This document shows, piece by piece, positions 40,705 to 44,244 of a stretch of DNA of 64,000 nt (the stretch's first letter is position 1; every line of letters begins with the position of its first letter). Under the pieces are notes generated by a model that saw nothing but the letters and a program-made list of their open reading frames with translations, was not told the origin of the DNA and did no database searches. Where the stretch lies: the IMG/VR virus record IMGVR_UViG_3300028909_000001. One strand, given 5' to 3'. The stretch comes from a virus (taxonomy: Duplodnaviria; Caudoviricetes). The position numbers and the translations under genes are program-made.

Positions 40705-41078
40705 ATTCCAAATTTGAACAATTATTACGAACTAAAGGCTGGGTAGTTGAAAATAACAATATTTATGTCAAGGATTACCATTTTATATTGAATAATATGG
40801 ATAAGTTAGTATCCATCAATGTATACTTTTCAGGCTATACCAATGATGGATTTCCCAAGTTTGCTAGATATTCAGCTTTAAATAAATCAAGTATCTATTT
40901 ATCCAAAGCTAATGCATATACTATAATTAAGAGTAAAGATAGAATTATATTAATGTTGGATCTAGCTGGGCAAGAATGTGCTATTAAATTTTTAATGTAT
41001 AGTGAAGCAGTCCATACACTTATGCATCAAGCTAAACTAATATTGGACCAAGCTAATCAAACTTATGCAAGTATCTAG
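40701..41078 (+). CDS. Hypothetical protein
   Basis: 125-aa ORF. Confidence 0.55.
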   Translation: MNSKFEQLLRTKGWVVENNNIYVKDYHFILNNMDKLVSINVYFSGYTNDGFPKFARYSALNKSSIYLSKANAYTIIKSKDRIILMLDLAGQECAIKFLMYSEAVHTLMHQAKLILDQANQTYASI

Positions 41079-41808
41079 TAATAAGCAAAGAGTGTTAGTA
41101 CTATCAGATGTTCATCAAGATATAGCTAGACTAAGATATATTTTAACCCACGAAGACTACGATTTTATAGTTAATTTAGGGGATTTGTTTGATTCATTTG
41201 ATTATAGGAGAGAAGATGATATAGTAGATACTTGTAAATTCATAACTGAGTATATAGATAATCCTAACTATATTTCACTTCAAGGCAATCATGACCTACA
41301 TTATCTATACAGTAGTCCTATGACTTGGTGCTCTGGTTATCATAAAAATAAAGAGAAAGTAATTAATAGGTACTTTAAACAGGATAAAATAGAAGTAAGA
41401 AAGAAGTTTCGATGGTATTGTTGGATAGATGACTTTCTTTGTACCCATGCTGGACTACATCCTTATTACCTAAGCCCTATGCAATCTTTAAATAAGGAAG
41501 AGTTATCAATTTGGTTAGACAATGAAAGTAAGAAGGCTGAAACTAATTTACTCATAGAACAACCTCATTGGTTTTATAGTGCTGGAAAAGCTAGAGGTGG
41601 TAGAGCTAGTGTAGGAGGGATTGTTTGGTTAGATTTTAATCAAGAATTTGTAGCAATAGATGGCCTAAATCAGTTATGCGGTCATACTCCTTACAATAAC
41701 ATAACTCAATACAAGAATACTAATAGTTATGATATTGATTGTCATGTAGCTCAATATCTTATAATACAGAATGGTAAGTTAGAAATTAAAGACTATGTAG
41801 ATTTATGA
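41065..41808 (+). CDS. Calcineurin-like metallophosphoesterase
   Basis: SDVH, GDLFD, GNHD, THAG, CGHT. Confidence 0.85.
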   Translation: MQVSSNKQRVLVLSDVHQDIARLRYILTHEDYDFIVNLGDLFDSFDYRREDDIVDTCKFITEYIDNPNYISLQGNHDLHYLYSSPMTWCSGYHKNKEKVINRYFKQDKIEVRKKFRWYCWIDDFLCTHAGLHPYYLSPMQSLNKEELSIWLDNESKKAETNLLIEQPHWFYSAGKARGGRASVGGIVWLDFNQEFVAIDGLNQLCGHTPYNNITQYKNTNSYDIDCHVAQYLIIQNGKLEIKDYVDL

Positions 41809-41993
41809 AATATTTCGTCACTTATAAAGAGGCTAACTATCCTAAAACTTGGACTTGTTCTAATGAACCTGCTTGGGAATCTAGTTTTCGTGAATTCAAT
41901 AATCTTAAAGATGCCGAAGATCTGATAAATGGTATAATTAATCAAACTGAATATTTTAAAGATATTAATTTATCTGTTGCAGTAGTTATGTAA
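41805..41993 (+). CDS. Small hypothetical protein
   Basis: 62-aa ORF. Confidence 0.5.
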   Translation: MKYFVTYKEANYPKTWTCSNEPAWESSFREFNNLKDAEDLINGIINQTEYFKDINLSVAVVM

Positions 41994-41996
41994 TTT

Positions 41997-42083
41997 GGCA
42001 GCATCGCATAATGGTATTGCCCCTCATTTGAAGTGAGAGTGCGGGTAACACCGGTGAGGGTTCGAGTCCTTCTGCTGCCTCCA
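41997..42083 (+). tRNA. tRNA-Ser(TGA)
   Basis: TTTGAAG loop, long variable arm, TTCGAGT, CCA. Confidence 0.88.
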
Positions 42084-42089
42084 ATTTAA

Positions 42090-42163
42090 CCAGATATAGC
42101 GTAATAGTAGCGTACAAGCCCTGGGAGCTTGTGGTGTCTGTGCAACTCAGACTATCTGGACCA
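42090..42163 (+). tRNA. tRNA-Pro(TGG)
   Basis: CCAGATA/TATCTGG, CAAGC-CCTGGGA-GCTTG, T-loop TGCAACT, CCA. Confidence 0.82.
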
Positions 42164-42166
42164 TTA

Positions 42167-42456
42167 TTTACTAGTTACCGGGTCCGAAACTGTCCTTAAC
42201 CAGACAAAGTAGGTACCAAATACAGATAGAGAACTGTAGTCAACAACGCACACTTAGTAAATGGAGTGTGGACGGAAATGAGCCAGGGAATCTGGATGAT
42301 ACCGTGCAGCCAACAACTTAGTAATAAGTCTGTGGACATGATAGGTGAAGGTCAGGATAACAACCTGGACAAGTCCTAAAGGGTTATGTAAATAGTATAG
42401 CAATATACAGCCCAGTACCTTGAAATATAGGTGTGTTGAGCCTGGTAATTAGTAAA
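42167..42456 (+). ncRNA. Unassigned structured RNA, about 290 nt
   Basis: 17-bp closing helix TTTACTAGTTACCGGGT/GCCTGGTAATTAGTAAA, many internal stems, GNRA tetraloops, no ORF in track. Confidence 0.7.
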
Positions 42457-42460
42457 ACAT

Positions 42461-42534
42461 ACACACGTAATTTAATAGTAGAATATTTGCCTGATTAGCG
42501 AATTGTACTTGTGCAACTCAAGTCGTGTGTACCA
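42461..42534 (+). tRNA. tRNA-Ile(GAT)
   Basis: ACACACG/CGTGTGT, TTTGC-CTGATTA-GCGAA, T-loop TGCAACT, CCA. Confidence 0.85.
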
Positions 42535-42559
42535 ATTTAAACGAACAAAACAAACATCC

Positions 42560-42871
42560 ATGAACAAATTTAATACAACAATGATAAAATTTATTCCAGC
42601 AATGGTAACATTAGCAGTATTATACTTTATTGCTGCTATTTTCGTTGGTTATTATACGGCAAACAGAGACAAACTACTTCAAAAGCAGAGAGAAGAACAA
42701 TATAAAGTGATATTAATAAATGCATATCTCACAGGTTATGAAGATGCACAAGATGTTTATGGTAAGATGATTAAGAATGAATTCCATAATCATACTGACT
42801 TAACAAATTATTCACAAACAGCCTATGATAACTTTTGTACTAACACAGTGAATAAGTATCCGTTACCATGA
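42560..42871 (+). CDS. Membrane-anchored hypothetical protein
   Basis: N-terminal hydrophobic helix. Confidence 0.6.
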   Translation: MNKFNTTMIKFIPAMVTLAVLYFIAAIFVGYYTANRDKLLQKQREEQYKVILINAYLTGYEDAQDVYGKMIKNEFHNHTDLTNYSQTAYDNFCTNTVNKYPLP

Positions 42872-43203
42872 AAAAGACAACTATTAATGTAATAATGGGC
42901 TTAAAAGTGATGGACGACCTTATGCACGCAACTGGTGTGTTTGAATCTTTTAAGAGATTTGGCGAACATCAAGTTATAGAGTATGAAATGCAGAAAAGTG
43001 AACCAGATTTAGATTTCATAACCAGGTTTAAAGAATCAGCTGAAAAAGAAGGCTATATAATTACAGCTATCTGGGTAGGTGAAAATCCTCAAGTCAATTT
43101 AGTGGATTGGTCAATTAAAGCAATTAGTGATGGACAAAAATGGAGTATGTTAGAACCATATTTAAACCATTTCGGTATACAAAAACAAGAAAAAACTATA
43201 TAA
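42868..43203 (+). CDS. Hypothetical protein
   Basis: 111-aa ORF. Confidence 0.55.
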   Translation: MKKTTINVIMGLKVMDDLMHATGVFESFKRFGEHQVIEYEMQKSEPDLDFITRFKESAEKEGYIITAIWVGENPQVNLVDWSIKAISDGQKWSMLEPYLNHFGIQKQEKTI

Positions 43204-43210
43204 TTAAAAT

Positions 43211-43507
43211 ATGAACGCTACTGAACTATTAGATAAGTTTGAAAAAGAACTCCCCAATCTAGGAACTTGGTACTGGACTGAAAAGACAGGCTCCAAACCT
43301 AGAATATTAGTATGCATCACTAAAATGCTTAAAGCAGGGCTGGAAGAAGAAACTGTTAAAGATATTATTATTAGTATGATGTATACTGGTTATGTAGAGC
43401 ATGAAAGACAGGTTAAAGCCGAGACTGGTTTAAGTGTAGAAAAGTTTATGCAGAAAAAGCTTGAATCTTTGCCTGTTGAACAAGAACATTGTCTTACTAA
43501 CGAATAA
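43211..43507 (+). CDS. Hypothetical protein
   Basis: 98-aa ORF. Confidence 0.55.
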   Translation: MNATELLDKFEKELPNLGTWYWTEKTGSKPRILVCITKMLKAGLEEETVKDIIISMMYTGYVEHERQVKAETGLSVEKFMQKKLESLPVEQEHCLTNE

Positions 43508-43513
43508 TTTAAT

Positions 43514-43589
43514 CCGGTTCTGGTGTAGTAGGTCTGCACGCTTGACTGAAAATCAAGAGGTCGTTTTTCGATTAAACGGAACCGGGCCA
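43514..43589 (+). tRNA. tRNA-Phe(GAA)
   Basis: CCGGTTC/GAACCGG, CTTGA-CTGAAAA-TCAAG, TTCGATT, CCA. Confidence 0.9.
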
Positions 43590-43600
43590 ACCTATAATTT

Positions 43601-43909
43601 ATGCTGCAAAAACTGCCAAAAAGCGTAGGTGATTCCATTACTTTGGGTTCTTTAATATGTATAGGAATTGCCCCAACTAGTAATTCTTCTTTTGTTCCAT
43701 TTGCCTCTTTCGAAAGAGATGGAGAGTTAATTAGTTATGAAATAAAGAATCAAGCGTTAATAGATCAGTTATCTGATACCTTAACCGATATGCTTATGTC
43801 TAATATGAAAGACATTGACGTTAGAATTGATTATAAGTATGTAGTAAAAGCAGGTTACATAGAATTACTCTATAATAACAACACTATAGAAATTCAAAAT
43901 GAAAACTAA
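43601..43909 (+). CDS. Hypothetical protein
   Basis: 102-aa ORF. Confidence 0.55.
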   Translation: MLQKLPKSVGDSITLGSLICIGIAPTSNSSFVPFASFERDGELISYEIKNQALIDQLSDTLTDMLMSNMKDIDVRIDYKYVVKAGYIELLYNNNTIEIQNEN

Positions 43910-44244
43910 AATAAACACTAGTACTCTACCTAGTCTGGCTCTTCTTTCTATATTAGGTGAGGATGCAATAAAAATATTAATAACTCATGCTTTAGATAAA
44001 AAAAGAAGATGAGAAGCATATATTTGATATTGACCTTAAAATTGATGGTAAAGAGTATGATTTTCTTGTGTTGGTAGAACAATATCAAAAAAATCTGGAG
44101 CGTATGATCGATCTTGAAGTTAATAGCAGACTTGAATCTAAGTTTAATGAGCTAACCGACAAGTTATCTTTTATATCTAGCATGTTTGATGCAGCTAAGG
44201 CAAAAATTAAGAGTGAACTTAATTTAACTGAGGATGATTATTGA
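43899..44244 (+). pseudogene. ORF split by a frameshift at an A7 run
   Basis: Removing one A from 43998-44004 gives a continuous 114-aa ORF MKTKIN...LDKK-EDEKH...TEDDY. Confidence 0.6.

Follow-up and report, generated by a model that had tools for sequence, protein, structure and literature searches.

A very divergent RAGATH-33-type RNA, highly abundant in peat and possibly circular, in the tRNA array of a large phage

Which RNA, if any, is encoded between the tRNA-Pro and tRNA-Ile genes of the virus record IMGVR_UViG_3300028909_000001 (Duplodnaviria; Caudoviricetes)? The stretch analyzed here, hereafter the window, comprises 64,000 nt of this IMG/VR record, and the 290-nt element in question lies on its + strand (Table 1). 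A first-pass annotation, made from the letters alone, described it as a discrete, highly structured non-coding RNA (ncRNA) inside a phage tRNA array, and our results bear this out. We assign the element, as a very divergent member, to an extended superfamily around RAGATH-33 and not to the Rfam family RF03102 in the strict sense, and we are highly confident that it is a real, expressed structured RNA of this superfamily. Our best reading is that of a stable, highly structured ncRNA of a large phage, excised from a tRNA transcript and at least partly circularised, which we regard as probable. No open reading frame (ORF) of note was found over 42167-42456 and, besides tRNA, no Rfam family reaches its threshold within the window.

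The public runs that contain the window stretch are peat metagenomes. We compared four peat metatranscriptome runs from four studies over positions 41000-44000, taking as depth the mean k-mer depth per contig, which is a coarse measure. The locus produces a discrete, very abundant + strand RNA: its depth is 1230 in run X15 (contig spanning 42180-42415), 738 in X16 (a closed 289-nt cycle), 447 in X17 (42190-42415) and 112 in X18 (42183-42415, followed by Illumina adapter), against about 2-9 for the flanking protein genes in the same runs. This local excess of around 100-fold excludes DNA contamination as its cause, and the orientation of the adapter at the insert ends is consistent with + strand RNA. 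The contigs of X15, X17 and X18 all stop exactly at 42415, and contig ends coincide with the structure described below: the 5' strand of P1 has its inner end at 42183, and HpG begins with 42416. Positions 42166-42179 and 42416-42456 are uncovered in these three runs, which is not readable as absence. The first-pass annotation had named what would speak against it, namely a strong match to a known Rfam family, or a lack of both covariation and a discrete transcript; these runs supply the transcript, and the Rfam search found no such match.

To what family does this RNA belong? A permissive Rfam scan gave one weak match, to RAGATH-33 (RF03102) at 42203-42303, with 17.9 bits and an E-value of 0.44. 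One block is nearly identical to the RAGATH-33 consensus: GAAAUGAG, a short hairpin and AUGAUAC. We used the 28-nt P3/HpC module as a pattern with 19 specified bases and scanned three collections, which resulted in matches on 29 contigs of IMG/VR (nearly all of 36-410 kb), at least 80 contigs of metagenomes and 8 contigs among about 185,000 species genomes. Since only 3 of these 8 matches are real, and all three lie on large phage-like contigs binned into metagenome-assembled genomes of Firmicutes, Mollicutes or Eubacteriales, the family looks phage-specific. Its carriers are mostly large phage-like contigs from gut, rumen, peat and other metagenomes. Most pattern matches have the canonical RAGATH-33 sequence, and the Rfam model gives 124, 125, 131 and 139 bits among the canonical members L012, L034, L005 and L106, while L042, L009 and all more divergent lineages fall below its threshold. 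The 97 elements retained form 13 clusters at 90% identity, and four more divergent members were recognised besides (L061, L095, L099 and L059). Near-identical copies of the window element are found in L030 and L114, one of them differing by a 1-nt deletion in a joining region.

The Rfam model spans only the 5' 113 nt of an element that measures 230-300 nt at full length: in every lineage the conserved region runs 120-180 nt past the model and then ends in a terminal helix. From an alignment and a helix-by-helix inspection we derived a family fold in which the closing helices P1 and P2 surround seven to eight hairpins, in the order P1, 5' segment (AGAC box plus an inserted hairpin that varies), HpA (AUAGAAAG), P2, HpB, P3/HpC, HpD, P4/HpE, HpF (UGAAACN), P2' and P1'. 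RNAalifold alone recovers most of this fold. In a covariation alignment of the 97 members (A2, 71 distinct rows), 98.1% of the cells are paired and changes on both sides occur in 47 of the 53 pairs, a level reached by none of 500 shuffles; sliding the partners by 1-3 columns leaves 31-47% paired. Compensatory changes are therefore abundant, as the covariation check proposed by the first-pass annotation had asked.

The closing helix is present in every lineage with a different sequence each time, and 8 of the 8 modelled P1 pairs show compensatory changes. P2 covaries as well (UCAACA/UGUUGA in the window, GTTGCTT/GAGCAAC in L071, GTCAC/GTGAC in L059, and 5 of 6 pairs in the main family). The HpB stem, read from the sequences, is GCGG/CCGC, TTGG/CCAA, GATG/CATC or TCGG/CCGA depending on the lineage, and HpF stems are GACC/GGTC, ACCG/CGGT, GCTG/CAGC or ACTG/CAGT. 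The irregular P3 helix is nearly frozen across the family, the AGAC box is common to most lineages, and about 55 columns are invariant among the 22 sequences used for modelling, many of them in loops and joining regions.

Some pairings were tried and set aside. A long-range GCGGU/GACUGC helix given by RNAalifold on a MAFFT alignment was dropped for the local HpB, whose stem changes in every lineage, and for the 3' GCUACC, pairing with the 5' GUAGCUA gave way to P2 (GGUAGU/GCUACC), which covaries in L005, L006, L009 and L026. A pseudoknot between the 5' GGGUC and the GAYYY of the P4 loop fits most sequences of the main family; it shows only G-U/G-C swaps and has one counter-example, and we do not claim it. 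Two resemblances were noted. AAGUCG...GUAACAA resembles the 3' end of 16S ribosomal RNA; AAGUCG belongs to P3, as one of its covarying strands, and the window has lost it. The HpA (UAGAA) and HpF (UGAAA) loops might form T-loops that bind tRNA elbows, an idea with which the HpA loop of the window does not agree.

The window element was compared with this family by means of a covariance model, R1, built from 22 sequences with the window lineage excluded. R1 matches 42167-42399 with 55.5 bits (E 1.2e-12), which is its only significant match in the window and in the whole record, and it gives one match in each of the 97 loci. It places HpA, HpB, P3/HpC, HpD and HpE of the window correctly; the 3' end is misplaced, since the window has extra sequence inserted in HpF and one hairpin more. 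Where the module alone occurs by chance, it scores 11-20 bits with R1, so that roughly 35 of the 55.5 bits come from the rest of the element. About 17 of the 117 loci of the pattern scan were rejected as chance matches (R1 at or below 20 bits), and several of these (L041, L049, L066, L067, L100 and L109) lie in one stretch of unrelated sequence.

Strict RAGATH-33 membership finds support neither in the Rfam score, which is 17.9 bits against a curated gathering threshold of 120.4 bits, nor in the 5' box GCUAACGGCAGUU that opens the Rfam consensus, which is absent from the window and also from L011, L021, L026 and L002. The features of the extended superfamily are there. The P3 internal loop AAAUGAG / AUGAUA, which encloses a hairpin of 4 bp closed by a GRAAW loop, is exact at 42272-42305. 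The elements follow in the order P1, HpA (AUAGA-type loop), P2, HpB, P3/HpC, HpD, P4/HpE (UAAC loop), HpF (UGNAAA box), P2' and P1', with P1 and P2 of the window placed by its fold and by comparison with L059 and L071. Finally, the element belongs to a phage tRNA array and shares the orientation of its tRNAs. Like RAGATH-33, it has the P3/HpC module with HpA and its AUAGA-type loop upstream, HpB, and a place in phage tRNA arrays; unlike RAGATH-33, it has the extra hairpin HpG and the HpF insertion, and it comes from peat, not from gut or rumen. The suggestion of the first-pass annotation that this may be a new class thus goes too far: no Rfam family matches at threshold, but homologues connect the element to the catalogued orphan RAGATH-33.

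Three points weigh against this kinship or temper it. The P3/HpC module was the bait with which the family was collected and is not independent evidence. Alignment A2 was fitted to the structure model, and its pairing counts are inflated. Profiles (nhmmer) of the 5' and 3' flanks without the module gave no significant match on the element, the best having an E-value of 8.4 at HpE. The flank profiles being blind to the element, homology rests on the module, on the element order with its short conserved loops, on the covariance model and on a chain of intermediates that bridge toward the window (L061, L095, L099, L071 and L059). In two of these, L071 and L059, which come from other metagenomes, we found further features of the window element, namely HpG with its ACCU/AGGU stem, HpF with an inner hairpin, and a covarying P2.

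The five divergent members are located in non-gut metagenomes and score 44-94 bits with R1 (L071 1532-1817; L059 1-256; L061 354-585; L095 1133-1392; L099 3690-3901). The closing helix of L061 stops 4-6 nt before a tRNA, in a window-like manner. BLAST searches against GenBank phages with the element (for distant relatives) and with the surrounding 10 kb (for near ones) gave no match. A scan with a 3' motif of the window-like clade returned the already known L030 and 16 new loci, which were rejected: they are unrelated, coding-looking sequence without family elements, in which R1 finds nothing significant. RAGATH-33 is named in no paper of the searched literature, nor in the main text of the source paper, PMC5737381, and literature searches on circular RNAs and on phage tRNA clusters returned nothing relevant.

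The features of the window element are collected in Table 1; its two closing helices would stack on each other. On the + strand it folds with -83.9 kcal/mol (z = -3.55 versus 200 shuffles, 1 of which is equally good), and the - strand shows no such advantage over shuffles (z = -1.16). The first-pass annotation was right that a 17-bp terminal helix closes the element and that the latter fills the gap between two tRNAs, leaving spacers of 3 nt (UUA) after tRNA-Pro and 4 nt (ACAU) before tRNA-Ile. Five of the local helices it listed (TACAG/CTGTA, CACACT/AGTGTG, ACGG/CCGT around CCAG/CTGG, and ACTTA-GTAA-TAAGT) have counterparts with compensatory changes at the equivalent position in distant relatives. 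Its GTATA-GCAA-TATAC hairpin does form in the minimum-energy fold, as an insertion specific to this lineage, and the long-range AGGTAC/GTACCT helix had to be given up: it has no counterpart in the nearest distant relatives, L059 and L071, and GTACCT is the 5' strand of HpG, with its ACCU/AGGU stem. The stem of HpG is invariant, which makes a covariation test impossible. The annotation had also excluded a transfer-messenger RNA (tmRNA) and seen no RNase P signature, in agreement with the lack of any such match by ARAGORN or the Rfam models.

The A of GCCAACAAC at window position 42312 is the site of a 1-nt deletion variant, seen in L030, in L114 and, among the RNA contigs, in that of high depth from run X15. 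The site falls within the unpaired joiner that leads from P3 to HpD. As the variant is also found in the RNA, this indicates that two strains of the phage are transcriptionally active in peat.

Table 1. Coordinates of the window element, its helices, its RNA ends and the adjoining tRNA genes
Feature	Position	Strand	Description	Basis
tRNA-Pro(UGG) with encoded CCA	42090-42163	+	directly upstream of the element	ARAGORN; Rfam tRNA 55.2 bits
289-nt unit seen as closed cycle	42166-42454	+		one metatranscriptome assembly
Structured element	42167-42456	+	occupies the tRNA-Pro/tRNA-Ile gap	
P1 5' strand, 17-bp closing helix	42167-42183	+	partner 42440-42456, 3 G-U pairs included	
5' segment	42184-42220	+	small lineage-specific hairpin 42191-42206 overlapping AGAC box 42202-42205	alignments, minimum-energy fold
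HpA hairpin	42221-42238	+	loop AUAGAGAA (family consensus AUAGAAAG)	aligned by R1; 6 of 6 pairs covary in the family
P2 5' strand UCAACA	42240-42245	+	partner 42434-42439	minimum-energy fold
HpB hairpin	42249-42270	+	CACACU/AGUGUG, variable loop	fold and R1 alignment
P3 (ACGG/CCGU)	42272-42305	+	around near-invariant internal loop AAAUGAG / AUGAUA and HpC; signature module common to RAGATH-33	
HpC hairpin	42283-42295	+	loop GGAAU, inside P3	P3 and HpC stems covary
HpD hairpin	42316-42329	+	GUAA tetraloop; GUAA or similar loop at the equivalent place in the main family	
P4 (GGAC/GUCC)	42334-42376	+	around HpE	alignment, covariation
HpE hairpin	42351-42370	+	conserved 7-nt loop AUAACAA (family RUAACRA)	alignment, covariation
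HpF hairpin (GGGUU/AGCCC)	42381-42413	+	UGUAAA box (family UGAAAC), inserted GUAUA-GCAA-UAUAC hairpin	minimum-energy fold
Discrete RNA 3' end	42415-42416	+		high-depth contigs, three RNA runs
HpG hairpin (UACCU/AGGUG)	42416-42433	+	window-like clade only (window, L059, L071)	minimum-energy folds of three divergent sequences
P2 3' strand UGUUGA	42434-42439	+	partner 42240-42245	fold comparison
P1 3' strand	42440-42456	+	partner 42167-42183	
tRNA-Ile(GAU)	42461-42531	+	directly downstream	Rfam tRNA 51 bits; missed by ARAGORN

The company of tRNA genes is a constant trait of the family. In the 97 loci, all 642 tRNAs identified by ARAGORN are on the strand of the RNA. The distance from the element to a tRNA is at most 10 nt in 27 of the 97 elements, at most 50 nt in 35 and at most 1.5 kb in 88, and typical junctions read either tRNA CCA, 1-3 nt, P1, or P1, 4-9 nt, next tRNA. 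The window itself has 16 tRNA genes, tRNA-Ile included; they are dispersed among small ORFs from 32.8 to 61.5 kb, alone or two together, and all of them are on the + strand. Neither a sigma-70-like promoter nor an intrinsic terminator was found flanking the element. The window is part of an 85.7-kb record, estimated to be 39% complete, with replication genes of large phages (SbcCD-like proteins, helicases, DNA polymerase, UvsX-like recombinase and DNA ligase).

Such a setting raises the question of whether the element acts only in cis, as a folded block that separates tRNAs, offers an entry to RNases and has no function after release. The family always occurs in tRNA arrays, in the orientation of the tRNAs and frequently directly beside one, as expected of such a spacer. 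We nevertheless consider this explanation quite improbable: a spacer accounts poorly for the invariant positions, many of them unpaired, and for the eleven covarying helices kept across lineages of different habitats; the RNA accumulates far above its neighbours; and 70 of the 97 copies are more than 10 nt away from any tRNA. The invariant unpaired nucleotides, the near-frozen P3, the high steady-state level and the presence on phage-like contigs of several habitats lead us to favour, with some reserve, a stable trans-acting structured RNA that is released from the tRNA transcript and would work by way of its tertiary structure.

Is this RNA linear or circular? The X16 contig measures 319 nt (289 + 30). 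It runs over 42295-42454 for 160 nt and then over 42166-42324 for the remaining 159 nt, with 0 mismatches, as in a cycle printed with a k-1 = 30 overlap. The joint leads from 42454 to 42166 or, equally, from 42455 to 42167. Downstream of it are the G residues of the genomic 5' strand, so that a 3' strand copied by snap-back is excluded, and the joint string is absent from the IMG/VR contigs, from the window and from the rest of the 85.7-kb record. A head-to-tail joint is thus seen in one library, and a defined end at 42415 in three. That the RNA is truly circular in vivo is, in our judgement, an evenly balanced matter.

Several points weigh against a circle. It is known from one assembled contig of one run, and contig depth cannot give the circular fraction. 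The three other runs have no joint, and their contigs are without 42416-42456 and 42166-42179. Template switching by reverse transcriptase, on an abundant RNA whose ends are joined by a helix, could make the same joint. Moreover, neither an RNA ligase nor RtcB was found in the 85.7-kb record, which is incomplete, and the carrier phages have no consistent ligase partner (RtcB in 1 of 30 and an RNA_ligase domain over the cut-off in 8 of 30), so that a circle would need a host enzyme or self-catalysis.

The RNA could accordingly be linear in the cell, the joint being an artefact of reverse transcription or assembly with P1 holding the ends together, and we give this a little short of an even chance. 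The joint was seen in only one of four runs, the others spanning only 42180, 42183 or 42190 to 42415, and the record shows no ligase gene. However, X16 contains a clean, isolated cycle of exactly 289 + 30 nt at a depth of 738, with no mismatches and no added letters, and a linear 42166-42454 RNA would by itself leave the sharp end at 42415 unexplained.

The RNA could also be a self-processing ribozyme. It would cut at G42415/U42416 and/or at the ends of the element, and its termini would be joined by itself or by RtcB, as in viroid-like RNAs. The defined 42415 end in three runs and the circular joint in the fourth fit such an RNA, as do the very many invariant unpaired nucleotides of the family, and RAGATH motifs were found through their association with ribozyme-linked genes. 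On the other hand, no known self-cleaving motif was found in or beside the element at E-values up to 10, and the joiner that follows HpF varies from lineage to lineage (AG, GA or AUA), which makes us regard a ribozyme as unlikely. A group I intron, or its remnant, seems hardly conceivable. Group I introns can circularise and occur in phages, GNRA loops and an internal loop rich in A are present in the element, and the first-pass annotation had seen in it a loose likeness to group I P4-P6. But Intron_gpI gives no match even at E-values up to 10, there are no exons but complete tRNAs on either side, the 3' residue at the joint is A and not G, and the order of helices differs.

Returning to the reading that we prefer, a stable RNA excised from a tRNA transcript and at least partly circularised, the following course of events may be proposed, which fits the abundance, the end at 42415 and the joint alike. 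The element would be transcribed on the tRNA strand within a polycistronic transcript of tRNAs and small ORFs and excised beside the flanking tRNAs, probably by RNase P at the 5' end of tRNA-Ile, with later trimming of the 3' side, and by an endonuclease directly behind tRNA-Pro. The RNA accumulates to about 100 times the level of neighbouring messages. At least part of it would be closed into a 289-nt circle, in which P1 would become a hairpin arm of 14-15 bp with a loop of 3-5 nt, and part or most of it would be opened at G42415/U42416. Reverse transcriptase stopping at the base of the P1 hairpin may give the contig starts at 42180-42190. As candidate roles, the RNA might be one component of a ribonucleoprotein particle, together with a protein of host or phage; an RNA-only assembly, by analogy with ROOL or GOLLD; a binder or mimic in the sphere of tRNA and translation, given the constant company of tRNAs; or the self-processing ribozyme discussed above.

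Some observations were made on the neighbourhood of the RNA in the window and in other carriers. The window ORF 41065-41808 (+), upstream of the block formed by tRNA-Ser, tRNA-Pro, the RNA and tRNA-Ile, is metallophosphatase-like. Among PHROG families it weakly matches a NinI-like phosphatase (E 3e-6) and a portion of an 'RNA ligase' family (E 7e-6), and it could be an RNA-end-healing enzyme. A search for window-like relatives by way of this ORF led to one distant phage (L120, 33% identity), in which the RNA is absent. In another carrier, an RNA-ligase-like frame (G020:C1:42725-43237) has two in-frame TGA codons, and a tRNA with a CUA anticodon (amber suppressor; 'tRNA-Pyl (cta)' in ARAGORN) lies close to the RNA in L012, L017, L054, L082, L088 and L097; together, these tRNAs and codons hint at stop-codon recoding in some carrier phages. 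An 83-nt segment in the 24-tRNA array of L002 (4532-4614) scores 51.2 bits against an Rfam tmRNA threshold of 47 and is probably a tRNA-like element rather than a tmRNA. For a rumen member of the family (L020), word shares of 0.81, 0.78 and 0.42 were found in bovine metatranscriptome runs, values with no bearing on the level or form of the RNA.

How does this RNA compare with known systems? The tRNA cluster of phage T4 has two stable non-tRNA RNAs of about 120-140 nt, species 1 and 2 (rnaC/rnaD), which are encoded in the tRNA operon and released by tRNA-processing enzymes. To our knowledge they have not been reported to be circular, and their function is still unknown. The window RNA resembles them as a stable non-tRNA RNA within a phage tRNA operon, and is longer. 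Circles made by excision and ligation include those of archaeal and eukaryotic tRNA introns, the processing circles of archaeal rRNA and those of permuted tRNA genes. As in these, the two sites of cleavage would be held side by side by a long helix, and the piece between them appears in a head-to-tail joined form; unlike in these, no bulge-helix-bulge is possible at the window element, because its flanks are complete tRNAs, and no RtcB was found in the record. ROOL and GOLLD are large ornate RNAs of phages and prophages, often adjacent to tRNAs, that form RNA-only multimers according to cryo-electron microscopy (bioRxiv 10.1101/2024.12.08.627333). The window element is likewise phage-borne and next to tRNAs, with many conserved tertiary-looking elements and no assigned function. 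It differs in being half their size or less and in having no sequence or model match to them (the Rfam models of ROOL and GOLLD give none in the window).

ROOL RNA was also found in the same tRNA region as a RAGATH-33-type RNA in 8 of the 30 large-phage records searched. Full-length ROOL, with 285-323 bits, is present in records G004, G011, G013, G016, G017, G018, G027 and G028, and ROOL stands beside the RAGATH-33-type RNA in loci L012 (8251-8844), L005 (3766-4364) and L042 (1775-2028). The two are thus a recurrent pair of orphan ornate RNAs.

RAGATH-33 has so far been an Rfam entry without function or full-length model, and we found no expression data for it in the searched literature. Our analysis shows that the 113 nt catalogued so far make up the 5' half of a closed architecture of 230-300 nt, that the family extends past gut phages to peat and other environmental viruses, where it escapes the Rfam model, and that this RNA ranks with the most abundant transcripts of phages in natural samples. 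The circular joint is equally new, and the RNA may be circular. The wider proposal, that the tRNA operons of large DNA phages contain the gene for a conserved ornate RNA, which would be excised, covalently circularised and then perhaps reopened at G42415/U42416, is one we make tentatively and not without doubt. If it is true, this would be a circular ncRNA encoded by DNA phages and made by its own catalysis or by host ligases, and the whole RAGATH-33 superfamily would share a circular life cycle, because the closing helix is kept in every lineage. A conserved, hyper-abundant and possibly circular RNA that accompanies phage tRNA sets gives a handle on the role of the non-tRNA RNAs of phage tRNA clusters, such as T4 species 1 and 2, ROOL and GOLLD.

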